Of a DNA stretch of 64,000 nt, positions 3,103-61,908 are shown one piece after another. Position 1 is the first letter of the stretch, and the number at the start of each line of letters is the position of its first letter. Source of the stretch: an uncultured Gammaproteobacteria bacterium (GTDB taxonomy: Bacteria; Patescibacteriota; Patescibacteriia; UBA9934; CAZDDW01); assembly GCA_965231015.1 (NCBI GenBank), contig OZ246408.1:686595-750594 (forward strand). The letters run 5' to 3'. Position numbers and translations under genes: made by a program. The notes beneath the pieces are model-generated. The model was not told where the DNA came from. It did no database searches and saw only the letters and a list, made by a program, of their open reading frames with translations.

Positions 3103-3212
3103 ATTTTCAATTTAACAATTTACAATTTTCGATTTAAACACCAATGATCAATTGATAACTGAACCTTGATCATTAAATGAAAACTGAAAATTGAAAACTG
3201 ATCATTATATTT

Positions 3213-4403
3213 ATGCGTTACGTTTACACTGTCGCTGATAAAAAAGGCGAAAAAAAGCACGGTGTCATAGAGGCGGACGACAGGAAAAAAGCTATTGCAG
3301 AATTGAAACGGTCGGGCAAGACCATAATTTTCTTATCAGCCGAAACCAAGAAAATAATTCTCTATCTCCCCTACGTTTCCAGCTTTGAAAAAATGGCCAT
3401 GACTAAACACCTGGCTATCATGCTTAAAGCCGGTTTGACCCTGGACGCCACCATGAAAACCCTGATCCTTCAGTTCACAGGGAAACTGCGGAGTGTTTTA
3501 GACGATGTTTACGACAGTATTGAAGCTGGTTCAGGATTAGCCGAAGCTATGGCCCAACACCCGCGTGTGTTCAACGACTACTTTGTAAACATGGTAAAAG
3601 CCGGTGAATCAAGTGGTAATCTACCGGAGAATCTGGAACGTTTAGCCGACCGGTTAAGCAAAGACCATGAACTGAAACAAAAAGTGGTCAGTGCTATGTT
3701 TTATCCGACCATGGTTTTTGCTCTCACCCTGGCGCTTGCTTTATCCATTTCTTTATTTGTACTTCCTCGCCTGACCGGACTTTTTAAAGCTTTTGACTTT
3801 GAGCTTCCGTTAACCACTAAAATCATGCTGGTCTTTTCCAACTTTATGGCCAACCATGGTGTTTTAGCGGCCATGATTGTTATTATCGGCATCCCAACCT
3901 TCATTTTTGTTTTAAGACTAAAGCCGGTCCGACCGTTTTCCCATGCCCTGTATCTTAAGCTGCCTCTGATCAACAAACTGATCATGGATATTAATTTGGC
4001 TCGTTTTTCCATTATTTTGTCCTCCCTTTTGGAAAGCGGTTTACCAATTGATAAGGCGGTTAAAATCTGTCGGGACGTTATTGGAAACTACCGCTACAAA
4101 GCGGCTATTCAACGTTTAAACGAAGGAATTGTCACCGGAAAACCGGCCTCTGATGTTTTGTCTGAATTTCAAAGTATTTTCCCACCGTTTGTGGTGCAAA
4201 TGATTGCTTCCGGTGAAGAATCAGGGAAACTCGAAGACATGTTGTCATACCTTGGAGAATTCTATGAAAAAGAACTGGATAATAAACTTAAAAACCTTTC
4301 CACCATCGTTGAACCGGGTCTATTAATAATCATTGGTTTAATGGTGGCCTTTACGGCCATTGCCATTATCACTCCGGTTTACAACTTTATTGGAGAAATT
4401 TAA
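3213..4403 (+). CDS. pilC: Type IV pilus platform protein PilC/GspF family
   Basis: 396 aa with two GspF-type repeats and three TM segments. It lies immediately downstream of pilB. Confidence 0.85.
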   Translation: MRYVYTVADKKGEKKHGVIEADDRKKAIAELKRSGKTIIFLSAETKKIILYLPYVSSFEKMAMTKHLAIMLKAGLTLDATMKTLILQFTGKLRSVLDDVYDSIEAGSGLAEAMAQHPRVFNDYFVNMVKAGESSGNLPENLERLADRLSKDHELKQKVVSAMFYPTMVFALTLALALSISLFVLPRLTGLFKAFDFELPLTTKIMLVFSNFMANHGVLAAMIVIIGIPTFIFVLRLKPVRPFSHALYLKLPLINKLIMDINLARFSIILSSLLESGLPIDKAVKICRDVIGNYRYKAAIQRLNEGIVTGKPASDVLSEFQSIFPPFVVQMIASGEESGKLEDMLSYLGEFYEKELDNKLKNLSTIVEPGLLIIIGLMVAFTAIAIITPVYNFIGEI

Positions 4404-7800: not shown

Positions 7801-9881
7801 TTCACTATTTCGTAATTGAATCCGGCGCTTTTGAATTACCTGACGGTACCCTGATTGAAGCCGGAACTTATGACAGCAGTACGGTAGCTTCTAAAGCCAA
7901 CGGATGGAACGGTGATAATATCAACTTCACCCAAGCCTTCACTTCTGCTCCAGTAGTTATGCATGCGGTTCAAACCGAAAACGACAGCACCTGGATTTCC
8001 AGTTTCATTTCCGCTCAAGGTAGCCAAAACAACCCGCCAACCTCCACCGGTTTTCAGATTGCCATGAACGGAGCCGAGGCAGTTAATAGTCATGACCCGG
8101 AAACTCTGGGTTGGGTGGCTTTTGAGACCGCCACCGGTTTGATTGATGGAACAGCCTACGAATTTGTTAACAACGGAGATGGCACTACCGGACACGCTAA
8201 CGGTTGTACTGTTAAAAATTTCTCCAACTCCTACTCTTCCCCACCTCTGGTTATTGCTGACCAGCAAGAAATGGATGGTGGTGATGGAGGGTGGCTGGTT
8301 GGCTGTTCAGGCCCAACTTCTTCGAATTACGGCGAACATGTTGAAGAAGACACGGTTGGTGACACTGACCGAGGTCATACCGGTGAAACCACGGCCTACA
8401 TTGCTTTTGAAAGCGCGTTCGATTTTGAACAATCAACTTCGAGTAATCCTTTGCGCCTTGAGGTTGGCTCAACGTCTGTAACCTCGGCTTTCAACACGGT
8501 CAACCTACAACTTTCCTACACTGATCTGGTAGTTATTCCTTTCCATATGGAAAGCTCTAATACCATTCCCGTTTCTACTCGCATCACTAATATCACCTCC
8601 AACAGTTTTGACATTAAACTCGACAACCCATCGGGCAGTACTCCTTCCAGTGAAACAGTTTATTACATTGTAGCCGAGACCGGTATCTACACTTTGCCCG
8701 GAGGAAGTATTCTTGAAGTATTTAAAGCTGACACCAGCCAGGTTAGTTCGTCCGGAGCCGGCTGGAGCGGCACCAACTACAACTACGTCAGCAGCTTTGC
8801 TTCAACTCCGGTTGTTTTACACCATGTTCAAACCAACAATGACCCGGCCTGGATTTACTCTTATGTTTCCGAACAAGGCACGGCCACCAACCCTCCGACA
8901 GCTACTGGTTTCCAATACTCTCTTAACGGTGCTGAGGTCACCAATTCCCACGGATCTGAAACCATTGGTTTTATTATTCTGGAACAGGGTACGGGCAATA
9001 TTACCGGAATCGATTTTGAAAACACGGTTCACAGCAATAACACCCGTGGTCACGATGATGGTTGTTACACCCAAACTTATTCCGGTTTTTTCTTCCCTGC
9101 TCCGCTCGTAATTGCCAAACAGCAGGGTATGGCCGGACCTAACGGCGGATGGTTAGTGGGTTGCTCGGGTCCAAGTTCTTTCAACTACGGAGCTCATGTT
9201 GAAGAAGATCAGGTTGGAGACGGGGAAAGAAACCACACCGACGAATACACGGCTAGCTCTATTTTTGAAGCCGCTTTCGATTACGAAGAGGCTGAAAATG
9301 ATCTTGTCTTCCAGGTTCGTTCTTGTGATGACGCCGGTTGTGTCGGTGAATCATTTATGGGTCCGGACGGCACCAGTGGTACCTACTACACCACTCCTGA
9401 CGGCGAGGCGTTAAATGTTGCTGAAAACCAATATTTCCAATATCAGGTCACCTTTACATCCGGTGATGGCGCCACTACTCCGGAACTGTATGACGTCACT
9501 TTTGACTTTGGTCCTGGCGGTGGAGGCGGCGGCGGATCCTACGAAACCGCCGGCACTTACCGTTCGAACGCTTATGACGCAGGTGGAACCGCTAATTGGA
9601 ACACCCTTGAATGGACCGAAGAGGTCACGGGTTGCGGTACTTGTGACATTAAGGTGCAGATTCGCACCGCAACCACACCCGGTGGCCTATCCGGAGAACT
9701 TTGGCAGGGTCCAGAAGGTAAAGATGGTGATGAAACCGACTTCTTCACTGGCCCGTCCGGCGACCTGATCCATCCGGATCATAACGGAGACCAGTGGATC
9801 CAGTATCTAGTAACCCTGACCGGAGATGGCACTACTACCCCGTATTTTGAAGATATCTTTATCACTTACACCAACTACTAA
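4860..9881 (+). CDS. Giant pilin-headed surface protein (1673 aa) with LVIVD beta-propeller repeats and an internal tandem 286-aa duplication
   Basis: The N-terminus ...RHG|SVMIEALMAVAIFGIG is prepilin-like, with Glu at +5. About 14 LVIVD-type repeats (ELVIYDVSTP, EFFILNVATP, ELVIVDVSNP, ELYIIDVSNP, EIMIYDVSNP ...) span roughly nt 5500-7380. Two tandem 286-aa units (7593-8450 and 8451-9308) are about 50% identical. A G7 run lies at ~9511-9540. The first 29 nt overlap the upstream gene. Confidence 0.75.
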   Translation: MKPGWWNLTKYRHGSVMIEALMAVAIFGIGASSIVYLILGSLETTRSGSDYTAAQEYLNEGWEATRSIGTNNYNALEISPTTFGVDDTSGEWVFSGTSNTDGYFTRTIDINPVYRDALGDIAPTGTIDINLREIIVNVSWYETPTKQRSVFSTFYFSNWDSDSWFEDTEADFSDGTFTSTETTLHDDGEVALEAIGGGSDDWGCVEQTLTYDISGTADYNDLDVVDNTLYMVRESDTGPELVIYDVSTPDSPSLLGSMDLTTTGNAIKVDDGYAYIASIHNSYELGVIDVSDPAAPFLAGGYDAAGTANGSDVYVDGDRVYLARESSAADEFFILNVATPSTPVFVGSYDVGDTVEGLVVDTTNDVAFLATRGDARELTAVNISTETSPVLHSEYDIPGIDNATDVALDDTLNYAIVTRTTDTGSEIFVVNVSDPTNITAETDLEADRDAIGVYVDGDYALVVTNDPGYGLITIDFSNPATATTLSTIDIDGDANAVIAADNHRIYVATGNDSGELMVYKAGGGWACPSFVGNYDDTAGTDAVRLDLVGDTLYLTKESSGNDELVILDVTDRSSPSLLGSIDIGDTIFDIDVEGNYAYLATNGDELVIVDVSNPSSLSIAGTFDATGGADGYAVVVNADRAYLGRNSSSSDELYIIDVSNPAAPVELDSFDAGDDVNGLAYSGGYVYLASDHNTYTFENYDVSFDTWSWVDYIQYPTNLRDVYVNGNYAYVVGEDNPGNEFFIIDITDPTNYSEVGSAEINEDSYEVWSDGNYAFLSAHITDQEIMIYDVSNPTGPSFVQSYDISGGTYDVFGIEGDGSYLYASGESDDQELIILEPYVSSGLADTYIHDSLAEFNGSYSDTQWNTDHLELDATGITNGTGTYTSPIIDSGQADSAWGDLAWTEELNNSPDLRMEAGSTTATSSYSTVTLQNTYENPVVVPFYFESNNADPVSVRLDNITSTSFDLKLQEPDGTTPSSDTVHYFVIESGAFELPDGTLIEAGTYDSSTVASKANGWNGDNINFTQAFTSAPVVMHAVQTENDSTWISSFISAQGSQNNPPTSTGFQIAMNGAEAVNSHDPETLGWVAFETATGLIDGTAYEFVNNGDGTTGHANGCTVKNFSNSYSSPPLVIADQQEMDGGDGGWLVGCSGPTSSNYGEHVEEDTVGDTDRGHTGETTAYIAFESAFDFEQSTSSNPLRLEVGSTSVTSAFNTVNLQLSYTDLVVIPFHMESSNTIPVSTRITNITSNSFDIKLDNPSGSTPSSETVYYIVAETGIYTLPGGSILEVFKADTSQVSSSGAGWSGTNYNYVSSFASTPVVLHHVQTNNDPAWIYSYVSEQGTATNPPTATGFQYSLNGAEVTNSHGSETIGFIILEQGTGNITGIDFENTVHSNNTRGHDDGCYTQTYSGFFFPAPLVIAKQQGMAGPNGGWLVGCSGPSSFNYGAHVEEDQVGDGERNHTDEYTASSIFEAAFDYEEAENDLVFQVRSCDDAGCVGESFMGPDGTSGTYYTTPDGEALNVAENQYFQYQVTFTSGDGATTPELYDVTFDFGPGGGGGGGSYETAGTYRSNAYDAGGTANWNTLEWTEEVTGCGTCDIKVQIRTATTPGGLSGELWQGPEGKDGDETDFFTGPSGDLIHPDHNGDQWIQYLVTLTGDGTTTPYFEDIFITYTNY

Positions 9882-9883
9882 AT

Positions 9884-10414
9884 ATGAAACTACGTCGCTC
9901 ACAACACGGCTATACCCTGGTGGAACTTCTGTTGACCATTGCAGTGCTGGCTTTGATTGGAGCGCTTGGTATTAACCTTTTCTTAGCTGTTTTAAATAAC
10001 AGAGCCAAGGTGATCGCCCAAATAGAGGTGCAACAAAACGCACACTTAGCCATGCAGCGCATAGTTTATGAAATCCGTCGCGCCTATGACACTGAGGCCA
10101 CTTCTGACTTTGATACTAATTTGGCTACCAATCCCGGCACTACGCTTGATCTGGACATGCCGGATGCTGGACGCGACCCAACCACCTTTGAAGTGAATTC
10201 CGGAGTCATCCAAATCACACAAGGAGCCGGCTCTACTGTTAACCTGACCTCAAACGACGTTGAGGTGACTGATTTAACAATTGAAGACCGAAGCACCGGG
10301 AACGGACGAAGCAACAACTTACGCGTCAATTTAACCATCAAATCTGTACTGGATGGACCAAACGCGCCTGATGCGGAAACTTTTGTCACCACAGTTGAAC
10401 TTAGGTATCCATAA
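9884..10414 (+). CDS. Prepilin-type pseudopilin
   Basis: MKLRRSQHG|YTLVELLLTIAVLALIGAL, with Glu at +5. Confidence 0.8.
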   Translation: MKLRRSQHGYTLVELLLTIAVLALIGALGINLFLAVLNNRAKVIAQIEVQQNAHLAMQRIVYEIRRAYDTEATSDFDTNLATNPGTTLDLDMPDAGRDPTTFEVNSGVIQITQGAGSTVNLTSNDVEVTDLTIEDRSTGNGRSNNLRVNLTIKSVLDGPNAPDAETFVTTVELRYP

Positions 10415-10416
10415 AT

Positions 10417-10836
10417 ATGCGGCAACTTTTTCAACAACTTAAAGACCAAAAAGGCTTTGTGACCATTACCACAGCTGTTATAATATTCTTTACAACCCTT
10501 ATTTTGGCCCTCTCCATTCAGTTTGCCGGCATTGGAGTGTTACAAACCGGATACTTAAACAATCTTTCTGCCCAAGCCTACTCTTTGGCTGATGGATGCT
10601 TAGAAGAAGCCATGCTCCGCTTAACCACGGATGACACTTATACCGGTGGTACGGTCACAGTCGGTGATGATTATTGCACCATTACCGTCACTGGAGCAGG
10701 TGCAACAAGAAACATTACCTCAATGTCCACGGTCAATGACATTGTCAATCGAGAAATTGAAGCCGATGTCACCATCACTGACATGGGCGGCTGGAACGAC
10801 GTTGTTATGACCGATTGGATGGAAACAATAAATTAA
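10417..10836 (+). CDS. Pilin-like minor subunit (non-canonical, no Glu+5)
   Basis: MRQLFQQLKDQKG|FVTITTAVIIFFTTLILALS has a hydrophobic pilin-like helix after Gly, but Thr at +5. This resembles PilX/GspK-type minor pilins. Confidence 0.55.
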   Translation: MRQLFQQLKDQKGFVTITTAVIIFFTTLILALSIQFAGIGVLQTGYLNNLSAQAYSLADGCLEEAMLRLTTDDTYTGGTVTVGDDYCTITVTGAGATRNITSMSTVNDIVNREIEADVTITDMGGWNDVVMTDWMETIN

Positions 10837-13073: not shown

Positions 13074-13556
13074 ATGATAAATTTCAGGCGAAACAAAGAG
13101 GGTTTTACTTTGGTCGAGCTCCTCATTGTGATCGCAATCATTGTGATCCTGTTCGCTGTCATCTTGGTGGCCGTTGATCCACCAAAGCGACTTGGTCAAG
13201 CTCGAGATGCTGTGCGCCGTCAGGACGTTCGTGATATCCTCGAAGCGGTCCAACAATACATGGTGGACAACGATGGGGCTTACCCAACCGGACTGGACGC
13301 TGTTTCAGCCTCCTTCCAAGTACTTGGTACTGATGCCGCTGGATGTGACAGCACTTGTACAGCTGAAACTGCCCTGGCTGCTTGTTTAGACATGTCCGGT
13401 GACTTAGTTGAGGAATATCTGGCTGATATTCCATTTGATCCATCAAGCGGAGATGCTGGAAACACAGATTATGCTATCAATCGTACGGCTGGTGACCGCA
13501 TTGAAATAGTTGCTTGCGACCCGGAAATTGCAGCCACCATTTCAGTTAAACGATAA
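13074..13556 (+). CDS. Type IV major pilin (paralog 1)
   Basis: MINFRRNKEG|FTLVELLIVIAIIVILFAVILVAV is a canonical prepilin. A Cys-containing variable C-terminal region follows. An extended -10 promoter and a downstream terminator are present. Confidence 0.9.
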   Translation: MINFRRNKEGFTLVELLIVIAIIVILFAVILVAVDPPKRLGQARDAVRRQDVRDILEAVQQYMVDNDGAYPTGLDAVSASFQVLGTDAAGCDSTCTAETALAACLDMSGDLVEEYLADIPFDPSSGDAGNTDYAINRTAGDRIEIVACDPEIAATISVKR

Positions 13557-13671: not shown

Positions 13672-14151
13672 ATGATAAATTTCAGGCGAAACAAAGAGGG
13701 TTTTACTTTGGTTGAGCTCCTCATTGTGATCGCAATCATTGTGATCCTGTTCGCTGTCATCTTGGTGGCCGTTGATCCACCAAAGCGACTTGGTCAAGCT
13801 CGAGATGCTGTGCGCCGTCAGGACGTTCGTGATATCCTCGAAGCGGTCCAACAATACATGGTGGACAACGATGGGGCTTACCCAACCGGACTGGACGATG
13901 TTCAAACCTCATATCAGGTACTCGGAACCGGAGTTGGTTGTGACACCACTTGTGGTGCTGCTACCACCCTACCTGCTTGTTTAGACATGTCCGGTGACTT
14001 GGTTGAGGAATACCTGGCTGATATTCCATTTGACCCATCAACCGGAAGTGCGGCTAACACTGATTATGCCATCGAGCTAACTGCTGGCGACAGAATCGAA
14101 GTTTTAGCTTGTGACCCAGAAATTGCAGCCACAATTTCGGCCAAACGATAA
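13672..14151 (+). CDS. Type IV major pilin (paralog 2, tandem duplicate)
   Basis: The first 227 nt match paralog 1 with 1 mismatch. The middle and C-terminal regions diverge. Confidence 0.9.
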   Translation: MINFRRNKEGFTLVELLIVIAIIVILFAVILVAVDPPKRLGQARDAVRRQDVRDILEAVQQYMVDNDGAYPTGLDDVQTSYQVLGTGVGCDTTCGAATTLPACLDMSGDLVEEYLADIPFDPSTGSAANTDYAIELTAGDRIEVLACDPEIAATISAKR

Positions 14152-17120: not shown

Positions 17121-17290
17121 TGTTTGTCTCCGCCACTTCGAGTACGACGGAGGTCAATGGACATTTTGACCGGCTCGTGACGAGGATTGTTTGAAGCCGA
17201 GCATCCACCAAAAAAAAGACGCAAGGCAAGTCCCGCAGTCAAAGTTAGAAATGTTCATTATTCACCTCAGGCGAACGCAGAAAGAAAGAA
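17121..17290. repeat. Conserved ~170-nt noncoding element, copy A
   Basis: Shares collinear blocks with copy B. It starts just after the terminator of the 940-aa gene. Confidence 0.6.
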
Positions 17291-23405: not shown

Positions 23406-23536
23406 GTAGGCTTATTTTAGCAGGAAAAGACAGTGAAAACAAGGACGTAAAACCACCAAACCACGCACCACTCAATCTTTAAACAGACCTTTATTCTCGT
23501 ACGGACGAAAATAAGATACAAAAATATTGTACACTT

Positions 23537-23552
23537 TTTCACGATCGTGAAA
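23537..23552. promoter_or_regulatory. Perfect 16-nt palindrome TTTCACGATCGTGAAA (putative operator)
   Basis: Perfect dyad located 134 nt upstream of the Mur ligase start and downstream of the ArsR gene. The core recurs three times at 58.5-59.0 kb. Confidence 0.6.
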
Positions 23553-23570
23553 TTTTATACAATTTCTCAT

Positions 23571-23590
23571 TTTTACTTTCGTGCGAATGT
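23571..23590. repeat. Direct repeat copy 1 (TTTTACTTTCGTGCGAATGT) flanking the ArsR gene
   Basis: Differs by one mismatch from the copy at 23874-23894. Confidence 0.6.
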
Positions 23591-23602
23591 ACTGATGATC
23601 AT

Positions 23603-23863
23603 CTATAACATTCCGAGAATATATTTTGATGGTTGATCAGATATCGACTCGAGGCAGTAAATTTTTTCTTTCCCAACATATGAACCTTTTACCAGATCAA
23701 CTGACCTCAGGATTGCCAAATGTCTAGAGGTCGATTTCAAAGATAAATCAATCTTATCTGCTATCTCCCAAACCGAGGCTTTTTTCTCTTTTTTTAGATA
23801 CGCCAATATTTCCAATCTCTTCTTATTCGCCAACGCTTTTAATTGTTTCTCCATGTTTTTCAT
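23603..23863 (-). CDS. ArsR/SmtB-family winged-helix transcriptional regulator
   Basis: 86 aa. HTH region LEILAYLKKEKKASVWEIADKIDLSLKSTSRHLAILRSVDLV. Confidence 0.75.
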   Translation of the reverse strand: MKNMEKQLKALANKKRLEILAYLKKEKKASVWEIADKIDLSLKSTSRHLAILRSVDLVKGSYVGKEKIYCLESISDQPSKYILGML

Positions 23864-23873
23864 ATTTTTTTAA

Positions 23874-23894
23874 TTTTCACTTTCGTGCGAATGT
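23874..23894. repeat. Direct repeat copy 2 (TTTTCACTTTCGTGCGAATGT), immediately upstream of the ArsR start codon
   Basis: See copy 1. Confidence 0.6.
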
Positions 23895-36221: not shown

Positions 36222-36302
36222 ATTGGCTTGATTTTAGCTAAAAATCGGTATTTCTACCAGCGAGCGATAGTATACCGAATATCACTAAACCCGTCAAGAG
36301 CC

Positions 36303-42519: not shown

Positions 42520-42547
42520 CCTCCCCTTAGAGGGGAGGGATTTTTGT
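42520..42547 (+). terminator. Intrinsic terminator after the PEGA gene
   Basis: cctcccct-tag-aggggagg followed by GATTTTTGTT. Confidence 0.8.
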
Positions 42548-42722
42548 TCCGCCACTTCGAGCACGACGGAGGTCAATGGACATTTTTGACCGACCCCGTC
42601 AGACGGGGTGACGAGAACTGTTTGAAGCTGAGTGTCTACCTTAAGAACAGACGGCGCGAGGCAAGTTTCGTAGTCAAGGTCATAAAATATTCATTATCTA
42701 CCTCCGGTGATCACAGAAAGAC
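42544..42722. repeat. Conserved ~170-nt noncoding element, copy B
   Basis: About 70% identical to copy A. It lies between the PEGA-gene terminator (42520-42547) and the murA terminator (42795-42835). Confidence 0.6.
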
Positions 42723-42794
42723 GGCCGGTTTCTTTTTTCTGGTTTTCTTTGCCGGCTCAAAGAAAACTGGGTTGAATCAAAAAGCACCGTAACA

Positions 42795-54351: not shown

Positions 54352-54915
54352 ATGATTGAAATTAATCATGAGGTTCCCAACATTGAACTTGAGGCCTACC
54401 ACGGCAACGAAATTAAGAAACTTCATCTTAATGATTACCGTGGCAAATGGCTGATCTTGTTCTTTTATCCGGCTGACTTTACCTTTGTTTGTCCTACTGA
54501 ACTTGGTGAAATGGCCGATCTGTACGAAGAGTTTAAAAAAGCTGACGCCGAAGTTCTTAGTGTTAGTACTGACACAGTCTTCGTTCACAAGGCCTGGCAT
54601 GACGAGTCCGAGACAATAGGTCGAATCGAGTTTCCAATGGTAGCTGATCCAACCGGTAAACTGTCACGTCAAATGGGAGTTTACATCGAAGACGAAGGTG
54701 TGGCCTTGCGAGGAAGTTTCGTGATTGATCCAGACGGCATTCTGAAGGCGTTTGAGATTCATGACAACAGTGTAGGACGATCCGCTACCGAGCTCTTGCG
54801 TAAACTCCAAGCGGCTAAATTCGTTCGCGAACATGGCGGCGAGGTTTGTCCGGCCAATTGGAAACCAGGTGGTGATACTTTGAAGCCAGGGCTCGACTTA
54901 GTCGGTAAAATTTAA
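54352..54915 (+). CDS. 2-Cys peroxiredoxin (AhpC/Prx family)
   Basis: Peroxidatic Cys motif FTFVCPTE, and a resolving Cys in GEVCPANW. Confidence 0.9.
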   Translation: MIEINHEVPNIELEAYHGNEIKKLHLNDYRGKWLILFFYPADFTFVCPTELGEMADLYEEFKKADAEVLSVSTDTVFVHKAWHDESETIGRIEFPMVADPTGKLSRQMGVYIEDEGVALRGSFVIDPDGILKAFEIHDNSVGRSATELLRKLQAAKFVREHGGEVCPANWKPGGDTLKPGLDLVGKI

Positions 54916-54926
54916 GCTTAAAATAA

Positions 54927-54954
54927 CCTTAATTGTCCACGTGGTCAAATAAGG
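54927..54954. promoter_or_regulatory. 28-nt palindrome CCTTAATTGTCCACGTGGTCAAATAAGG between peroxiredoxin and SOD
   Basis: Near-perfect dyad centred on CACGTG. A second copy is at 58688-58715. Confidence 0.55.
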
Positions 54955-54963
54955 TACAAACAT

Positions 54964-55655: not shown

Positions 55656-56840
55656 TCACCGAGTCAAACCTTTAAATACTCCCTCCATTTTATCCATATA
55701 ATACGTCATGGCAAATTGGCTAATGTCCATCCGGATTTCGTCTTGGGCGTCATACCATTCATCACGTTCCTCAAGTACCCAACCAAGCTTCTTTATCAAA
55801 TCTTGGCTCGAACATGGTTCGAATAAATAACCGTTCTCACCATCGTGAACCAGTTCTGGAATTCCCCCGATTCGGGAGGCCACTACCGGTACTCCACAAG
55901 ATAAACTTTCATAAATGACGGTTGGAGAATTCTCGTAGCAAAGTGAGGGAGCCACCAAACAATCACTCGACGCAAGCATGGCCGCCGCTTCTTCCTTGTT
56001 AAACCCACCAAAAAAACTAATCCGCGGATCCATTCGTGACGCTGTTTTTATCTCCTTGTCCATTGATCCTCGTCCAGCAATTGTCAACTCAAACTCAAGT
56101 CGACTATTAGTTAAAGCTTGAATTAAAAACTCAATTCCCTTATGCGTTTCAAGTGATCCCAAAAATAAAATTTTTAATACCCCCTGTGGGCGACGTCGTG
56201 TCTCTATTCCGAAATCCGGAGCTGGGTTTGGTAGCACGTAAGATTCAGTATTTGGGAAAAAACCTCGTTCTGAATGAAAATCGAGTAAAAACTGAGAGGG
56301 AGAAATAACCGCTGCCGGATTGCCAATCGCCCACTTGGCTACTTTTACGTATAGGTCGTGCAAAAAACCCTTATTCATCCAATTATTCTCTTCACCATAT
56401 ATCAATAATCCACTTGGTACCACCAATTGAACGTCATGCAAAACATGCACATGTGGAACGTGTTTTTGAAAAGCATGCGGAACGGATGAACCGAACCCCT
56501 TTAGGTTATGTGTCATAACAACGTCCGGCTTGATTTCTTTTAAAAGCTCAACAACACGCTTTTTGCTCTCTCGAGCCACTAAATCAAAGCCATGCCAAAG
56601 AAACCGTTTCCAGAACTTTTGCTGCCGATCTTCAAGAGTGTAATACAAGTTGGATGGCTTGAATCGATAAACTTTGATTCCCTCTTCAAACGTTTCCTCA
56701 CCCCCCCCTTCTGGCTGCGTGGTAATCACACTCACCTGATGCCCGCGCGACACAAAACCGCGCGCAATCCGGTGGGCGACGCGTTCCGCTCCTCCGCGAA
56801 CATGCGGTGGGTACAAATTAGTTATGATGCAAATTCTCAT
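55656..56840 (-). CDS. Glycosyltransferase family 4
   Basis: GT-B fold with a C-terminal E-x7-E region (CYENSPTVIYESLSCGVPVVASRIGG). Confidence 0.8.
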   Translation of the reverse strand: MRICIITNLYPPHVRGGAERVAHRIARGFVSRGHQVSVITTQPEGGGEETFEEGIKVYRFKPSNLYYTLEDRQQKFWKRFLWHGFDLVARESKKRVVELLKEIKPDVVMTHNLKGFGSSVPHAFQKHVPHVHVLHDVQLVVPSGLLIYGEENNWMNKGFLHDLYVKVAKWAIGNPAAVISPSQFLLDFHSERGFFPNTESYVLPNPAPDFGIETRRRPQGVLKILFLGSLETHKGIEFLIQALTNSRLEFELTIAGRGSMDKEIKTASRMDPRISFFGGFNKEEAAAMLASSDCLVAPSLCYENSPTVIYESLSCGVPVVASRIGGIPELVHDGENGYLFEPCSSQDLIKKLGWVLEERDEWYDAQDEIRMDISQFAMTYYMDKMEGVFKGLTR

Positions 56841-57951
56841 AAACTGATTCTAACTTGTCAATCAAAATAGATCCAGCATACATTTGTTCGGCTCGAGTTC
56901 GAGCTGTCCGACCCATCACCTCCCGAGTCTGATAATCTTTTAAAAGCTCAGTCAGGGTCTTGGCCAGAACGTTCGGATCACCCGGTTTAACGAGCTGTCC
57001 AGTCTTGCCCGGCTCGATCACACTGCGTACACCTGGCAAGTCCGAGACAATGGACGGTATACCACTAGCGGCTGCTTCCACAGTCACGATTCCAAAGGCT
57101 TCCGAGCTATCCGTCGACGGTAAAACATGTACGTCTGCGGCACGATAATACTCAGGCAAATCTTCAGGCCCAACACTACCTGCAAAAATAACCCGATCAG
57201 CCAAACCATGAACGCGAGCGGTTTCTTCGTAACTCGATTTCAAGTCTCCTGAGCCAACCACTACCAAATGCCAAGGAAAATTTTTAATCTGTTCAAACGC
57301 TCGTAACAACACCGACACCCCCTTGAAGTAATGAGCCTTATCGAGTCCGCCCACAAAAATAATAACGGGTTCATTTTTTGGAATTCCAAATTTTGACCGA
57401 ACTGAGTCTCCTGTTCCTGGATGGAATTGATTTATGTCGACCCCAAAAGGCATCTCAACAACATCCGACGAACGACGTGCGACAAGCTCGGAGATCTTTG
57501 AGTGCTTTGCATAATCAAGTGAGCTGATCAAAATCTTATCCGAAATTTCCAACACCATTTTTCGCATCACAGCCCCGTGAGTCTTGTCAATTAAACCAAC
57601 CAGGCCGCCTTTTTTAATGTCCATGTGGTAGGTCGTGACTAAGAGTTTATTTCCCATGGCCTTCCACATGGCCACAAACTCGGCCCCACCAAAAAATGGA
57701 TAGTGGAGATGAACGACATCGAAACCAATCAGTTCGTTCCTTAAACTCGGCAAGGCAGCAGCGTTACCAAACTTAATGAGCGGTTTGATCCGATGAACGT
57801 ATTCAGGATCGTTTTTGACTGGTCGATACTTTGGCGTAAACACCTGAACGTCGTGTCCTCGAGCTCGCAGCTTTTCGGTATATTCAAAAGCCACGGTGCC
57901 AATTCCACCGCGGTATGGGGGGTAAACAGGAGTAACTTGAGCTATTTTCAT
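56818..57951 (-). CDS. Glycosyltransferase family 4
   Basis: GT-B fold: STDSSEAFGIVTVEAAASGIPSIVSDLPG. Confidence 0.8.
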   Translation of the reverse strand: MKIAQVTPVYPPYRGGIGTVAFEYTEKLRARGHDVQVFTPKYRPVKNDPEYVHRIKPLIKFGNAAALPSLRNELIGFDVVHLHYPFFGGAEFVAMWKAMGNKLLVTTYHMDIKKGGLVGLIDKTHGAVMRKMVLEISDKILISSLDYAKHSKISELVARRSSDVVEMPFGVDINQFHPGTGDSVRSKFGIPKNEPVIIFVGGLDKAHYFKGVSVLLRAFEQIKNFPWHLVVVGSGDLKSSYEETARVHGLADRVIFAGSVGPEDLPEYYRAADVHVLPSTDSSEAFGIVTVEAAASGIPSIVSDLPGVRSVIEPGKTGQLVKPGDPNVLAKTLTELLKDYQTREVMGRTARTRAEQMYAGSILIDKLESVYENLHHN

Positions 57952-58527
57952 ATCCTGTTGATTTTAGCTTAAAATCAGGTTAAAGTACAATTCAATCTAA
58001 ATTTTTCCAATTGACGTTTATGCTCAGGCGTGGCAGTATAACGTGTCAAAGCGAAAATTAATCGGACAATCTCCCAAAACCTATAGGAGGCAACATAGAA
58101 ATCATTAGAATGGAGTGGGTCTTCGTGGTCATTCTTCTGATGAGAAAATTCACTGAGGGGAAAACATGAAGTTCGTGATTTTGCAAGACCCCCCTCGCTG
58201 GGGGAGACGGATCGCAAGATATACGCAACCACGCCGGGCGGCTTTCGAGATCCCGAGTCAACAGTGCTTGGGGAGTTCGAAACTGAAGCCCCCAATCACC
58301 TCATTGGTGACTTGGGAATCCTGACTTGCTTTGGGCGCAATGCTTTCAAAACAGGTGCAAATTGGGCTCGTGAAAATCCCGACAAGTCGTTCGATGAGGA
58401 CTGCGCACGGCGACGAGGTTTACCGTTGGTTAGTGGTGTTTTCAACAAACGTCACTAGCCGAGGGCTTTTTATTAATCACTAAACCAATTTTATCGAAAT
58501 TAAACTTTTTCCTACTCGGCCAAAATC

Positions 58528-58539
58528 TCACGATCGTGA
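58528..58539. promoter_or_regulatory. Palindrome TCACGATCGTGA, unit 1 operator
   Basis: Centred about 43 nt upstream of the downstream -10 hexamer 58571-58576. Confidence 0.6.
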
Positions 58540-58545
58540 AATTTC

Positions 58546-58576
58546 GGACAATCAATATAAATATTGTGTGTATAAT
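58546..58576 (+). promoter_or_regulatory. Promoter, unit 1 (GGACAA -35, 19-nt spacer, extended -10 TGTGTATAAT)
   Basis: TGnTATAAT at 58567-58576. The predicted TSS is near 58583. Confidence 0.55.
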
Positions 58577-58582
58577 GCGTAC

Positions 58583-58725
58583 CATTTAATCTTTTAGTTA
58601 AAAGGTTGTCGGGAGTGCATTGTATAAAAAGTGGACGACCGTCAAAAAGCAACCAACCACAAGGTGCTAATACGTAAAAGAAAAAAACCTTATTTGACCA
58701 CGTGCACAAATAAGGACCTTTTTTG
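58583..58725 (+). ncRNA. Candidate small RNA, unit 1 (~140 nt), ending at the 28-nt palindrome plus U-run
   Basis: A 5' stem-loop UUAAUC-UUUU-AGUUAA. The 3' hairpin ccttatttg...caaataagg (58688-58715) is followed by TTTTTT. There is no conserved ORF. Confidence 0.4.
58688..58715. promoter_or_regulatory. 28-nt palindrome CCTTATTTGACCACGTGCACAAATAAGG (copy of the prx-sod dyad)
   Basis: Same half-sites as 54927-54954. Here it is followed by a T6 run, so it looks terminator-like. Confidence 0.55.
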
Positions 58726-58802
58726 ACTTAATGTTATTACCTCTTTCCCCTACCACAAAATCAACTTAATCATATCTGAATAATATGCTTTCTCAGGCAA
58801 AA

Positions 58803-58818
58803 TCTCACGATCGTGAGA
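58803..58818. promoter_or_regulatory. Perfect 16-nt palindrome TCTCACGATCGTGAGA, unit 2 operator
   Basis: Same position relative to the unit 2 promoter as in unit 1. Confidence 0.6.
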
Positions 58819-58822
58819 TTTT

Positions 58823-58852
58823 GGTCAATCGGTACAAAAATTTATGTAAAAT
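58823..58852 (+). promoter_or_regulatory. Promoter, unit 2 (GGTCAA -35, 18-nt spacer, extended -10 TATGTAAAAT)
   Basis: Aligns base-for-base with the unit 1 promoter. The predicted TSS is near 58859. Confidence 0.5.
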
Positions 58853-58981
58853 AGGCTCCATTTAACCTTTTGGTTAAATGATCATTCGGTGTTTATTGTA
58901 CAAAAATAGACGGTCGTCAGATAATATACAATTCAAAACCTGTCAATCTTAAATCGAACTATGCATTATTTCGACAAAAAT

Positions 58982-58993
58982 TCGCGATCGTGA
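58982..58993. promoter_or_regulatory. Third, imperfect copy of the operator (TCGCGATCGTGA)
   Basis: One mismatch to the TCACGATCGTGA core. It lies inside unit 2. Confidence 0.4.
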
Positions 58994-59141
58994 AAAAGTG
59001 CCGAAACTAAAAACCAACACGGTTTATACAATCGTATAAACCGTGTTGGTTCAATCAAATTCGATTGGCATTCCATGTCTTGTTTTTGTCTTTTTTGTTC
59101 CCTATCACCAAATCAACTTATTAATTACTTTCCAAAAGTAA

Positions 59142-59179
59142 AAACCCTGCCCGAGGGTTGGCTCGGGCAGGGTTTTTTT
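59142..59179. terminator. Bidirectional intrinsic terminator (12-bp GC-rich stem)
   Basis: accctgcccgag-ggttgg-ctcgggcagggt with T-runs on both strands. It ends the lipoprotein gene on the minus strand and the repeat-region transcripts on the plus strand. Confidence 0.85.
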
Positions 59180-59183
59180 ATTT

Positions 59184-60773
59184 CTACATCTTTTCCCAGA
59201 TATTTATGGCTAAACCTTGCATGGCCGGTATAGTGGTCAACAAATTCCCCTCTTTTTTAAATTCCATACCTTGTCCAGTCTGATCCTCACTGAAATAGAT
59301 CGTTACGGTTGAGCCCTCATAAACATAGTTCATATCAGCAACATAGTCTGAGCTCAAATTGTATTGACCTGTACCATCGGCATTTAAAACCAGGTGGGCA
59401 TCCGGATACATGAGAAGGGCTGTGTCTTTTCTATACCCTTCACCAATTATTTCTATCAATCTATAGGTCCCTGCTACATCACTCAGATTGCTTCCAACAT
59501 TAGTCTCCTCCTCAACCACTTCTTCCCCAACTACCTCTTCTGTCTCTTCCACCTGCGGTGGTGGTTCGTATTCATTCAGACCAAATTGACTGGCGTCAAT
59601 CTCGGCTTGCGTTTGTTCTTCCAGGTTCTTTTGCCAGTTGTTCAGGTTTACAGAGGTAACATCGTTAAGACCGAAACTGGCCACATCAATGGTCTGGTCC
59701 TCTCCGTTTGTTACTTCTAAATCTTCAATCAGAGCCACTTCTTCAGTACTGTCTGAAGTGGTAACGTCCCACTCACCTTCCGGAAGTTCAATGGTTGCTT
59801 CTGGTGCGTCCTCTACAGCTAGAGCTACCATGAGTGGTCCATCAGTTTGAGCTTTAGTGAAAATAGCGTCAGCAATTTGGTCTTGTGTGGTTTCTTCCAA
59901 AGCGTCCCAAGATGAACCAATAGCATCATCATCAATAGCTCCGGCTAAAGAGCCTACACTTTCATTAATTGCCAGAAACACCTTTTTCTTGTCTCCGGTG
60001 GTTGTGGTGTTAGAGTTTTTAACAATAATATCGGCTTTTCCCACACTGTCTAACTCGCGTTTGGTAACCAGTTGTTTTACTACGTTTTCAGCGTAACCGC
60101 TTGGAGTAATTGGGTTTTCTCCGCCAGTGACTGCTTGACTGGCTTCCACCACGGTTTCGACAGCGGTTTTTCCAAGATCAGTGACTACCTTGGTCCAATC
60201 AATCAGTCCACCCACTTCTGGGTCACGAGATAGTCTTTCAATGGTGCTGTCGCTTGCATTTTCAAGGTCACTAACTGAACTCAAACCGTGATACTCCAAA
60301 ATTCGGTCACGGTCTCCACTGTACATATCCTGCAATCCGGTATAAATGCCTTCTCGAGCTGTTTCAATGGATTGATGTTTGGCTTTTACTAGTGAGCCAA
60401 AGATAGGAATGTAGTAGAGCCAGCTGGAACGCTTTTTGGCGTACGCCGCACGGATGAGCGGATCAAGCGCTGCGTTTGTGGACCCTTGTTCCATCAGCTC
60501 AGCCATTTTTTCAGCTTGAGCCATGGATTCATTGGCAATAGCCAAGAAGGCATGGTAGTTTTCAAAAAAGATGTCTGAATCCGCTTCACTAGCGGCAAAG
60601 ATCATGTTTTTGTCGTACTGGTTAAGGTAAACGACATTGTCATGAAAATCTGCCATGAGGTCTGCCGGATTGTATTGTCTGGCTTGTTTGTCAAAAAGAC
60701 TGCCCAGTGAGCAACCACTCAACAGTGAAGCCATGACCAACAAGACCAAAGCTTTTGGTATTAATTTTAACAT
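59184..60773 (-). CDS. Lipoprotein, unknown function
   Basis: Lipobox signal MLKLIPKALVLLVMASLLSGC|S. A bidirectional terminator lies at 59142-59179. Confidence 0.6.
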   Translation of the reverse strand: MLKLIPKALVLLVMASLLSGCSLGSLFDKQARQYNPADLMADFHDNVVYLNQYDKNMIFAASEADSDIFFENYHAFLAIANESMAQAEKMAELMEQGSTNAALDPLIRAAYAKKRSSWLYYIPIFGSLVKAKHQSIETAREGIYTGLQDMYSGDRDRILEYHGLSSVSDLENASDSTIERLSRDPEVGGLIDWTKVVTDLGKTAVETVVEASQAVTGGENPITPSGYAENVVKQLVTKRELDSVGKADIIVKNSNTTTTGDKKKVFLAINESVGSLAGAIDDDAIGSSWDALEETTQDQIADAIFTKAQTDGPLMVALAVEDAPEATIELPEGEWDVTTSDSTEEVALIEDLEVTNGEDQTIDVASFGLNDVTSVNLNNWQKNLEEQTQAEIDASQFGLNEYEPPPQVEETEEVVGEEVVEEETNVGSNLSDVAGTYRLIEIIGEGYRKDTALLMYPDAHLVLNADGTGQYNLSSDYVADMNYVYEGSTVTIYFSEDQTGQGMEFKKEGNLLTTIPAMQGLAINIWEKM

Positions 60774-60822: not shown

Positions 60823-61908
60823 CTACCACCAAAACAACTTTCTAATCACCTGCCAGAGGAAGTCGAGGAAGAGGTTGGCGAACCAGGATAATGGGGTTTC
60901 TGAGACTGACTCGAGATTTTGGTAGCCAATACGGCCGGTGAAGTGTTTGACAATTTCTCGATCTGATACAACTCGAGACTCTTGCGAAATCCGGCGTTTA
61001 GCCAGGATATTTTTTATTGTGGCTGGTTTCAGTAAATCGTAATAGGTCAACATTTTATGCTTGAACCAACCGGACGGAATCGAGATGAGCCATAGACCAA
61101 GTTCAACGAATAACAAAACCGGCAAGAGCAAAATCAACGTCGCGAGCTTATAATGCGTGAGCATGACGATCCATCGGTTACGCTCCATCCAAAACCACTT
61201 CTTGATTGATCGAGAGAACTCGTACTTGTGATACGCGACCGAATACAATGAGAGAACGTTTGTGTAGCCAGCGAGCATAATCCGCCAACCAAGTTCCAGA
61301 TCCTCATGATACAACCATAGAAACTCATCGAGCGCACCAATTTTTTTCAAAACACTGGCTCGATACATTACGGCTGCCCCACTGGCATACGCAATCTCTT
61401 CCCCATCTTGAGCTTTCGACCCACCAAACTCCACTCCATTGTCCCGACTAAACCCAAACCCCAAAAAATGAATCATGTTCCCGCTCGAGTTTAACGTTTC
61501 CGGATCCTGCCAGAGTTTGATGAGCGACTGAACTGAACCGATCTTCGGATTACTCTCGGCGAGCTCGACCGCTTTTTCAATAGCTCGAGAATCGAGTTTG
61601 GCATCGTTGTTTAAGAGATAAACGTAGTCATAACCAGCGAGTAAAGCATGATTGATCCCGATATTATTCCCGATAGCAAACCCTGTGTTAGTTTCATTTA
61701 AAAAAAACGTGATCCTTGGCAAATCCTGCTCGGATCGAGGCAAAACCTTATTCTTGATATACTCAGCTGAATTGTCTTCGCCCGGATTATCAACAATCAC
61801 TAATTCCATTAATTCGTGCGGATAAGTTTGCTTGGCGAATGATAAAACAACGTCGTCGATATACGGACGAGCGTTGTATGAAAGATAGATTATAGCTACT
61901 TTTGGCAA
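60823..61908 (-). CDS. Glycosyltransferase family 2
   Basis: VAIIYLSYNARPYIDDVVLSFAKQ ... YLLNNDA (DxD-like), with C-terminal TM helices. Confidence 0.8.
   Translation of the reverse strand: MPKVAIIYLSYNARPYIDDVVLSFAKQTYPHELMELVIVDNPGEDNSAEYIKNKVLPRSEQDLPRITFFLNETNTGFAIGNNIGINHALLAGYDYVYLLNNDAKLDSRAIEKAVELAESNPKIGSVQSLIKLWQDPETLNSSGNMIHFLGFGFSRDNGVEFGGSKAQDGEEIAYASGAAVMYRASVLKKIGALDEFLWLYHEDLELGWRIMLAGYTNVLSLYSVAYHKYEFSRSIKKWFWMERNRWIVMLTHYKLATLILLLPVLLFVELGLWLISIPSGWFKHKMLTYYDLLKPATIKNILAKRRISQESRVVSDREIVKHFTGRIGYQNLESVSETPLSWFANLFLDFLWQVIRKLFWW

Follow-up and report, generated by a model that had tools for sequence, protein, structure and literature searches.

The 740-nt gene-free stretch at 58441-59183 of the window (the whole 64-kb stretch of DNA that was analyzed, from a tiny candidate-phyla-radiation, or CPR, bacterium) is a recently duplicated, fast-changing spacer. 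With moderate confidence, we interpret it as a duplicated insertion-site spacer that carries orphan repressible promoter/operator modules; conserved small RNAs are unsupported. It appears to be a young, lineage-specific, non-coding mosaic that probably grew through successive insertions and duplications at the 3′ terminus of a glycosyltransferase (GT2) gene. An earlier note had described the same stretch as two tandem units, each with a palindromic operator, a promoter, a short transcript, and a terminator, and had taken them for duplicated small-RNA genes.

The claim that this stretch is free of ORFs was borne out: under code 11 the longest ORF spans at most 71 codons, and gene callers left the gap empty in two independent assemblies. 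Nor is a protein frame likely to be hidden by an alternative code or by sequencing errors: with TGA read as a sense codon no ORF exceeds 86 codons, and the sequence of the whole gap is identical across three independent assemblies. Although the equivalent gap in a relative, L005, holds four small genes, and no intact ORF accompanies the promoter and terminator of the adjoining stretch at 58046-58470, it is very unlikely that the region represents one or more decayed protein genes or a gene written in another code or masked by sequencing errors: besides the agreement of the assemblies and the absence of a long frame, indels between the units break every reading frame. When the region was compared with the small proteins of L005, GT2, GT4, the lipoprotein, and the PaaX-like profile, the only similarity was to the 11-residue end of GT2, and the ORF list and a reading of the sequence revealed neither a conserved small ORF nor a peptide of the type I toxin kind common to both units.

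The two units are tandem copies, with homologous cores as follows.
58515-58695, plus strand: core of unit 1, first copy of a duplication of ~180 nt (local alignment)
58792-58971, plus strand: core of unit 2, second copy (local alignment; repeat families D1-D3)
The cores share 129 identities over 178 positions (72%), with an alignment score of 65 versus 11.7 ± 1.5 in shuffles, and differ by five one-base indels, in agreement with the frame-breaking indels reported earlier. The units had also been said to align over their length; this holds for the first ~180 nt and for a 26-nt block at the 3′ end, but the rest is not alignable. A 19-nt run around the palindromic dyad described below is identical in both units, against flanks that are ~72% identical. 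We rejected this as a sign of selective constraint on the dyad: with two copies only, an identical run of 19 to 26 nt at 72% identity is not significant once corrected for position. The run therefore weighs against the spacer reading without being decisive.

Both units are closed by relics of the GT2 3′ end that read on the minus strand.
60823-60858, minus strand: functional GT2 3′ end, source of relics R1 and R2
58750-58773, minus strand: relic R1, reading MIKLILW-stop (compare the GT2 C-terminus, ...VIRKLFWW-stop)
59102-59140, minus strand: relic R2, reading YFWKVINKLIW-stop-stop
Relic R2 matches its source both at the nucleotide level (59134-59102 versus 60855-60823, 79% identity by blastn) and as a peptide (FLWQVIRKLFW versus YFWKVINKLIW by tblastn), and L005 has an equivalent relic, FWQVI-stop-KLIWW-stop, at the same position after the lipoprotein terminator. 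A synteny search identified L015 as the same organism as the window and found one close homologue of the lipoprotein (79% identity) and one distant homologue (44%, without synteny). The only close relative, L005/L016, in which the gap is the same in both contigs, has a 2.3-kb gap with different content: it carries one dyad module and lacks the units. In the more distant relatives L017 and L018, the GT2 stop codon and the GT4 start codon are 4 nt apart; thus, the locus is a lineage-specific insertion. Islands at the 3′ ends of tRNA or protein genes grow by tandem accretion at one attachment site and carry direct repeats of the gene 3′ end. The locus resembles them in that the three direct copies of the GT2 end delimit the lipoprotein cassette and the units, and in that GT2 and GT4 were adjacent in the ancestral arrangement. 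Unlike such islands, the window has no integrase, and its repeats span just ~25-40 nt at 70-80% identity; a similar mechanism is presumed. The mosaic nature of the stretch is also evident from the hairpin toward the end of unit 1, which is copied from 54906-54955, and from the third dyad copy, which has lost its TACAAT arm.

The dyad, TCACGATCGTGA, is exact at 58528, 58805, and 23539 and degenerate (one mismatch) at 58982, as the earlier note had it; at one mismatch or fewer, six matches were observed where 0.17 were expected. It is the central part of a composite palindrome of 38 bp, ATTGTA-N7-dyad-N7-TACAAT, which a window-wide pattern search found complete only at 23526-23563 and 58895-58932 (0.00 expected). 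A 12-bp dyad with a CG(A/G)(T/C)CG center is present at 58528, 58805, 23539, 58634, 58909, and 58982 (one mismatch); the four sites other than the two complete ones have a single arm or a degenerate arm. The 740-nt stretch contains five composite modules, of which three share the TCACGATCGTGA core and the others have GACGRYCGTC as their core. The sites, none of which is assigned to a strand, are as follows.
58526-58552: unit 1, site 1; TCTCACGATCGTGAAA, N7, and a degenerate right arm, GACAAT
58619-58643: unit 1, site 2; left arm ATTGTATA and variant dyad GACGACCGTC, no right arm
58803-58829: unit 2, site 1; CAAAATCTCACGA/TCGTGAGATTTTG, a palindrome perfect over 26 nt, and a degenerate arm, GTCAAT
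58895-58932: unit 2, site 2; complete 38-bp composite palindrome ATTGTACA-N6-GACGGTCGTC-N6-TATACAAT
58975-59000: third dyad module, decayed, TCGCGATCGTGAAAAAGTG, no TACAAT arm; matches the single L005 module
23526-23563: complete composite palindrome with the canonical dyad, 39 nt past the stop codon of an ArsR-like gene
The extended palindrome claimed for unit 2 is indeed perfect over its 26 nt. In site 1 of unit 1, the dyad-N7-arm spacing equals the TCGTGA-N7-TACAAT of 23526-23563, L005, and L007, and site 2 of unit 2 includes a promoter-like TGTACA-17-GATAAT (promoter scan). The third module is 87% identical to that of L005 (58970-59000 versus 9952-9922), from which it differs by an 11-nt deletion. 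Elsewhere, the 19-mer around the dyad had two matches in genome contigs, about the chance expectation: the one in L004, though properly armed, falls within an IleRS-like ORF, and the one in L003 is intergenic with weak arms. Two patterns had one match each in viral contigs; these are inside ORFs and have no arms, and therefore we treated them as chance and rejected them as real sites.

Sites of this class recur in other CPR bacteria at genes for PaaX-like proteins, an uncharacterized CPR subfamily of ~164 aa with a wHTH and a Cas2-like domain. All eight PaaX-like wHTH genes examined from other CPR contigs are bracketed by composite palindromes of the class, in which N5-8 spacers separate the 12-bp dyad from its arms. 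The palindromes are lineage-specific variants with cores that include GACGATCGTC and TCACGACCGTGA/TCACGGTCGTGA; the same or a variant core was found in L007, L011, L013, L008, and L021-L023. In the metagenome contig L007, the PaaX-like gene is bracketed by the identical 12-mer core with the same arms and spacing as in the window. The right arm lies 8-9 nt 5′ of the ATG in L007, L011, and L008, and the dyad center lies ~28 nt ahead of the leaderless start codon, where a repressor site would be expected. The window dyad also resembles the operators of PaaX-family repressors (PF07848/PF20803) in its 12 bp, its CGATCG-type center, and its overlap with a promoter. On sequence grounds, we consider it very likely that the dyad is a binding site, as predicted, of a dimeric wHTH regulator and overlaps a promoter. 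A search of the available literature found nothing linking PaaX to CPR or to Cas2-like domains.

The composite module would then be the recognition site of small winged-helix regulators, which elsewhere in CPR would be the proteins with PaaX-like wHTH and Cas2-like domains. At the PaaX-like loci the outer TACAAT-like arm would serve as the −10 box; given this and the ~28-nt distance to the leaderless start, a bound dimer would block RNA polymerase. We infer such binding and repression, and the choice of the active promoter, for the window modules as well. These modules are orphans, with neither a regulator gene nor an ORF downstream. If they fire, the products would be short, young non-coding RNAs that stop at hairpins close by and probably lack a conserved function. 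No PaaX-like gene was detected in the 64-kb window, and no relic of one between the dyads, by a profile HMM built from 120 family members and run against six-frame translations. Whereas exactly two copies flank the regulator gene at the CPR PaaX-like loci, the window sites are orphan and clustered. There are no additional sites within ±10 kb of the PaaX-like loci, which makes an orphan array atypical for this site class; together with the absence of a PaaX-like regulator from the 64 kb, this counts against the spacer reading.

The regulator suggested earlier was the ArsR-family protein, on the grounds that its gene is the only transcription-factor gene in the window and lies beside a dyad. The gene at 23603-23863 (minus strand) encodes an 86-aa ArsR/HTH_20 protein, and a scan of about 45 ORFs indeed brought up no other HTH protein. 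The exact dyad copy at 23539 is beside it, but because the gene is on the minus strand the dyad lies downstream, 39 nt 3′ of the stop codon and outside the promoter. The gene is instead flanked on both sides by an imperfect palindrome of its own, ACATTCGCACGAAAGT, and the protein is not supported as the dyad regulator. It belongs to the family of the ArsR/SmtB autoregulators and, as in these, a 7-2-7 imperfect palindrome adjoins its −10 box; this palindrome differs from the dyad. Thus, of the proposed common dimeric-HTH regulator, the wHTH-type site shared with PaaX-like loci stands as very likely, but the ArsR protein is unsupported. The composite palindrome at 23526-23563 is also 120 nt 5′ of the ATG of a Mur ligase gene.

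The palindromes could instead be the ends of inserting or recombining regulator cassettes, the units being collapsed or empty cassettes at the GT2 3′ end and the dyads their recombination scars, not working operators. We regard this as quite improbable. The two copies that bracket every PaaX-like gene often lie in a convergent spacer, where there is nothing for them to drive, and the neighbors of these genes differ in every lineage; even so, the upstream copy is exactly at the promoter/operator position, and the PaaX-like cassettes showed no target duplications around them. In the window, a direct repeat of the GT2 end delimits each unit, as in att-like tandem accretion, and comparison with L017/L018 shows the locus to be an insertion, yet no recombinase or transposase is nearby and the six-frame profile search found no PaaX-like relic between the sites. 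Similarly, the armed palindrome inside the IleRS-like ORF of L004 fits mobile ends, but the viral-contig matches are due to chance. On a broader view, which we put forward tentatively and consider unlikely, CGATCG-core composite palindromes and the small PaaX-like genes that they bracket constitute a widespread, undescribed, self-contained CPR cassette that could be autoregulated through its two flanking operators and could be mobile. The window spacer would then be either a graveyard where such cassettes piled up in tandem at a single insertion site, or an array of orphan operators. In the latter case its output might be non-coding RNAs under regulator control; alternatively, the array might titrate the regulator or keep transcription from passing between the two halves of a split glycosylation operon.

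The duplicated insertion-site spacer that we favor also has to be weighed against a model in which the units are paralogous small-RNA genes: both would have their own operator, promoter, and terminator and make a short structured transcript, and one dimeric regulator would control the pair. The relevant hairpins are as follows; the last three are not assigned to a strand.
58582-58605, plus strand: 5′ hairpin of unit 1, weak (−4.2 kcal/mol, z −1.55)
58858-58881, plus strand: 5′ hairpin of unit 2, 9-bp stem (−10.7 kcal/mol, z −6.0)
58681-58736: palindromic hairpin and T6, the proposed unit 1 terminator, copied from the palindrome of the AhpC-SOD spacer (54906-54955)
59012-59051: 18-bp perfect hairpin (−27.6 kcal/mol), followed on the minus strand by a T-run and terminator-like on that strand
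59140-59177: bidirectional intrinsic terminator, common to unit 2 and the convergent lipoprotein gene
Both −10-like boxes of the proposed promoters are present (TATAAT at 58571-58576 in unit 1 and TAAAAT at 58847-58852 in unit 2), but the −35 hexamers are poor matches to TTGACA, with spacers of 19 and 18 nt, and the promoter scan listed neither promoter. The 5′ stem-loops had been said to covary; the two changes, U·G to C-G and C·A to C-G, are both one-sided, and none is compensatory. The unit 2 hairpin is also terminator-like on the minus strand (terminator scan). At the end of unit 1, the palindrome and T6 exist as described, but the fold at 58688-58725 is weak (9-bp stem with three GC pairs, −9.8 kcal/mol), the T6 lies 3 nt beyond the stem, and the scan did not flag it; the element matches the AhpC-SOD palindrome with 78% identity over 50 nt (E = 1.3e-6) and, on the other strand, 86% over 35 nt (blastn). 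The terminator of unit 2 was confirmed and is strong and bidirectional, with a 16-bp GC stem and T7.

The unit 2 transcript region folds well (z −9.5, versus −2.6 for unit 1), but the shared lipoprotein terminator and the 18-bp hairpin account for most of its folding energy. Rfam at gathering thresholds returned two tRNAs only for the whole window, a permissive scan of 57900-59300 gave sub-threshold matches driven by the terminator and hairpins, and no family matched 58440-59190. Tandemly duplicated small RNAs under a common regulator are known, for example PrrF1/PrrF2 (Fur) and OmrA/OmrB (OmpR), and the window units resemble them as adjacent, homologous, ORF-free units, each behind the same regulator-type palindrome. 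Unlike these pairs, they lack a conserved RNA body and compensatory changes, and the nearest relative has no homologues; moreover, their 3′ parts are coding-gene relics of the opposite strand, and one of the terminators is weak and copied from another spacer. Operator copies also lie within the proposed transcripts. Thus, despite the tandem homology, the good −10 boxes downstream of the dyad, the hairpins after each site 1, and the downstream palindrome of L007, which likewise precedes about 55 nt and a terminator, we find a pair of small-RNA genes rather unlikely. On the other hand, the gene-free gap measures 1.2 kb in full, which is unusual in a streamlined genome of roughly 1 Mb and hints that something is maintained there; its length, together with the −10 boxes and hairpins, counts against the spacer reading.

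CPR/Patescibacteria have very few regulators, and to our knowledge their transcriptional regulation is almost undescribed. The dyad of the earlier note leads to a recognizable class of operators that accompanies a single small regulator family in several CPR lineages, which is more useful than the small-RNA idea, and the bracketing of the regulator gene by two operators at eight of eight loci offers a concrete candidate protein-DNA pair. The case also calls for caution, as a tidy picture of operator, promoter, transcript, and terminator can stem from segmental duplication of an insertion junction in which operator copies, coding relics, and borrowed hairpins are carried along by happenstance.

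Next to the units, we considered whether 58166-58458 is a frameshifted homologue of a 90-aa gene of L005 and rejected this, as BLASTP, tblastn, and Pfam all gave no match. Homology of this region to L005 is confined to two blocks: one that contains the promoter (61% over 69 nt) and one at the 3′ end, where the terminator lies (score 17 versus 7.7 ± 1.3).

The source organism is a CPR bacterium with a small genome (source contig ~1.0 Mb), and its nearest named relatives by protein are Candidatus Dojkabacteria, at 44% identity. The stretch at 58441-59183 lies within a gene-free gap of 1,232 nt (57952-59183), which shows no base difference between a pair of independent Logan assemblies from this organism; gene callers predicted no genes in the gap in either assembly. 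The earlier note called the stretch ORF-free, and this is borne out: no frame is open under code 11, nor does any open with TGA read as sense, and a decayed or miscoded protein gene is unlikely. On balance, the stretch appears to be a duplicated spacer at an insertion site, with orphan copies of a repressible promoter/operator. The borders of the gap and the coding relics within it are as follows:

56818-57951, minus strand: GT4 glycosyltransferase gene, one border of the gap
59184-60773, minus strand: lipoprotein gene (529 aa), the other border
59140-59102, minus strand: GT2 relic in unit 2, reading YFWKVINKLIW and two stops
58773-58750, minus strand: GT2 relic in unit 1, reading MIKLILW and a stop

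The block conserved in the 3' part of both units is a minus-strand relic of the neighboring GT2 glycosyltransferase gene's 3' end; the product of that gene ends in ...FLWQVIRKLFWW and a stop. In two more distant relatives (L017 and L018; GT4 63% identical), there is neither a lipoprotein gene nor a gap, and only 4 nt separate the GT2 stop from the GT4 start (junction at L017 5996-6001). The only close relative (L005, the same as L016; 79% identity in the lipoprotein and 75% in GT4) has a gap of 2.3 kb, which contains three small membrane or lipoprotein genes and one 90-aa gene, with a single dyad module upstream of the promoter of the latter. Nothing of the unit sequence was found in that gap except the GT2 relic (FWQVI-stop-KLIWW-stop; the relative's own GT2 end reads IWQVIRKIIWW-stop), directly after the lipoprotein terminator. 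Therefore, the locus is a lineage-specific, quickly rearranging insertion. The lipoprotein gene and the whole gap (57952-59183) are an insertion into an ancestral epimerase-GT2-GT4-GT4 operon, and the tandem units either arose once this lineage and its nearest known relative had separated or were lost from that relative. The 3' end of GT2 recurs as imperfect direct repeats flanking the lipoprotein cassette. Three direct copies of this end delimit the cassette, unit 2, and unit 1, as would be expected if insertion or duplication had happened repeatedly at one junction, a mechanism that we infer.

The two units (~58511-58790 and ~58790-59140) had been proposed to align over their length as duplicated small-RNA or leader genes, each with its own promoter and terminator. 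They are indeed homologous, but only in part: 58515-58695 and 58792-58971 share 129 of 178 positions with five 1-nt indels (alignment score 65 vs. 11.7 ± 1.5 for dinucleotide shuffles), and beyond this ~180-nt core the sole alignable part is a 26-nt block near the end of each unit. The -10-like boxes are present; however, they are paired with poor -35 hexamers across spacers of 19 and 18 nt, and neither promoter is on the promoter scan list. The supposed -35 hexamers are the degenerate right arms (GACAAT and GTCAAT, with N7 spacing unchanged) of a composite palindrome. The 5' stem-loops exist, but the differences between units (U.G to C-G and C.A to C-G) are one-sided improvements rather than compensatory changes, and the unit-1 hairpin is marginal (-4.2 kcal/mol, z -1.55). 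The unit-2 terminator is strong, although needed anyway by the convergent lipoprotein gene. The putative unit-1 terminator folds at -9.8 kcal/mol, is offset by 3 nt ahead of T6, and was not flagged by the terminator scan. Its hairpin (58681-58736) is a diverged copy of a palindrome at 54906-54955, between the AhpC and SOD genes; the two match at 78% over 50 nt (E 1e-6) and, on the opposite strand, at 86% over 35 nt. That palindrome reads AACCTTAATTGTCCACGTGGTCAAATAAGGT at 54926-54953; in the distant relative L018, another hairpin, rich in GC, takes the AhpC-SOD position. Rfam gave no match for the units at gathering thresholds, and a permissive scan gave only sub-threshold matches driven by the terminator and hairpins. 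We consider two small-RNA genes rather unlikely. In their favor are the length of the gap in so streamlined a genome, the good -10 boxes, and another CPR contig (L007), where ~55 nt and then a terminator likewise follow the downstream palindrome; but conservation, covariation, and a credible unit-1 terminator are all missing, and coding relics and operator copies would sit within the RNAs.

The dyad itself stands: TCACGATCGTGA occurs exactly at 58528, 58805, and 23539 and with one mismatch at 58982, and at ≤1 mismatch there are six matches against 0.17 expected. Variant dyads, GACGACCGTC at 58634 and GACGGTCGTC at 58909, lie ~105 nt downstream of each canonical unit dyad, and both are preceded by ATTGTAYA. 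Positions 58895-58932 and 23526-23563 share a 38-bp geometry, ATTGTA-N8-SACGRYCGTS-N8-TACAAT, which has no third occurrence in the window and none in shuffles. The third dyad copy (58975-59000) matches the single module of L005, except that an 11-nt deletion has removed the TACAAT arm from the window copy. The same dyad, with TGTAAC/GTTACA arms, also forms a near-perfect palindrome of 42 nt that is in frame within an IleRS-like ORF of a Saccharibacteria MAG (L004 7740-7785); this copy may be functional, inserted, or there by chance.

Contig L007 emerged from a search of metagenomes for dyad-N7-TACAAT; in it, two copies of ATGTAAACATTTTCACGATCGTGAAAATGTTTACA bracket a gene for a 163-aa winged-helix protein with the PaaX central Cas2-like domain (PF20803, E 3e-14). 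This family comprises more than 200 proteins, and its named members come from Parcubacteria-type CPR lineages. In L007 and seven further loci fetched for comparison, all eight PaaX-like genes are bracketed, upstream and downstream, by a lineage-specific version of one composite-palindrome architecture:

L007: palindromes at 3179-3213 and 3745-3779
L011: core GACGATCGTC, arms TGTAAC/GTTACA; palindromes at 9955-9995 and 10493-10535
L013/L014: cores TCACGACCGTGA and its reverse complement, arms TGTAAAC/GTTTACA; palindromes at 240-280 and 775-815 (L013)
L008: core AGCGATCGCA, arms TTAACA/TGTTAA; paralogue with a different core and arms ACGTTAT/ATAACGT; palindromes at 9955-9995, 10495-10535, 13380-13425, and 13990-14030
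L021, L022, L023: analogous cores and arms; palindromes on the flanks of the PaaX-like gene

No copies beyond the flanking two were found within ±10 kb of these genes, and the downstream copy is often found between convergent genes, where it has nothing to drive. The right arm ends 8-9 nt ahead of the ATG in L007 (TACAAC), L011 (TACAAT), and L008 (TAATAT), so that it acts like the -10 box for a leaderless mRNA; the dyad is centered ~28 nt upstream, the classic position for a repressor. Promoters of the leaderless type are likewise the norm in the window, where TGCTAAAAT or AGCTAAAAT lies 10-11 nt upstream of many ATGs, which points to leaderless mRNAs being common in the source organism. The -10 box (T/A)GCTAAAAT is seen at many minus-strand gene starts (e.g., 23416-23424, 57962-57970, and 36232-36240). 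In L023, a Gram-positive-type SOS box, CGAACAATTGTTCG (9842-9880), precedes a LexA-like (Peptidase_S24) and DinB operon divergent from the PaaX-like gene. That the units are scars left by a cassette would account for both the bracket arrangement and the direct repeats; however, neither a recombinase nor a gene relic supports this, and we regard it as quite improbable.

These loci in other genomes, evidence new to the earlier note, indicate that the dyad is very probably an operator core, the predicted site of a PaaX-like-type wHTH regulator. A profile HMM search of all six frames of the window found no PaaX-like gene or detectable relic; presumably, the TCACGATCGTGA sites are under a regulator whose gene lies in another part of the genome. 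The ArsR-family protein, previously suggested for this role, is the only HTH protein among ~45 window ORFs scanned, but it is disfavored, as the composite site lies 39 nt past its stop codon and another palindrome, imperfect and 16 nt long, flanks the gene on either side:

23603-23863, minus strand: ArsR/HTH_20 gene
23879-23894: exact copy of ACATTCGCACGAAAGT, upstream of the gene
23575-23590: exact copy of ACATTCGCACGAAAGT, on the other flank

Upstream, the palindrome directly adjoins the -10 box of the gene's leaderless start. ACATTCGCACGAAAGT is probably the protein's own operator and, by analogy with the PaaX-like brackets, a better candidate than the dyad.

The feature in the window, then, is of an ordinary kind in an unusual arrangement: operator copies within duplicated non-coding DNA. 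A predicted wHTH dimer on the dyad and arms would occlude the promoter, and unbound modules could fire in either direction, because the palindrome has a -10-like arm on each side, yielding short non-coding transcripts that end at nearby hairpins. The analyses run here gave no indication of conserved or functional transcripts from the modules. Speculatively, the cluster of sites might also titrate the regulator, or block transcription between the two halves into which the old GT2-GT4 operon has been split. Of more interest is a by-product of the analysis: across the CPR, small PaaX-like regulators are paired with CGATCG-core composite palindromes that stand on either side of the regulator gene, a pairing of which we found no description in the searchable literature. 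To our knowledge, regulation in CPR bacteria is almost unknown, and this is a directly testable protein-DNA pair.

Elsewhere in the gap (58003-58475), ~420 nt of 50% GC without an intact ORF lie between a promoter-like block (TTGACG-N17-TATAAC) and a terminator at 58426-58475; two frames join there at a C6 run (58189-58194). The L005 90-aa gene shares homology with this region in the promoter and at the 3' end, but the body is not alignable, and the region is either a decayed gene or an unrecognized RNA. Two non-coding copies of ~165 nt (17121-17285 and 42541-42760; CCGCCACTTCGAGYACGACGGAGGTCAATGGACATTTTGACC...GTTTGAAGCYGAG...), with no Rfam match at E ≤ 1, are ~80% identical, and each lies in a long intergenic gap.
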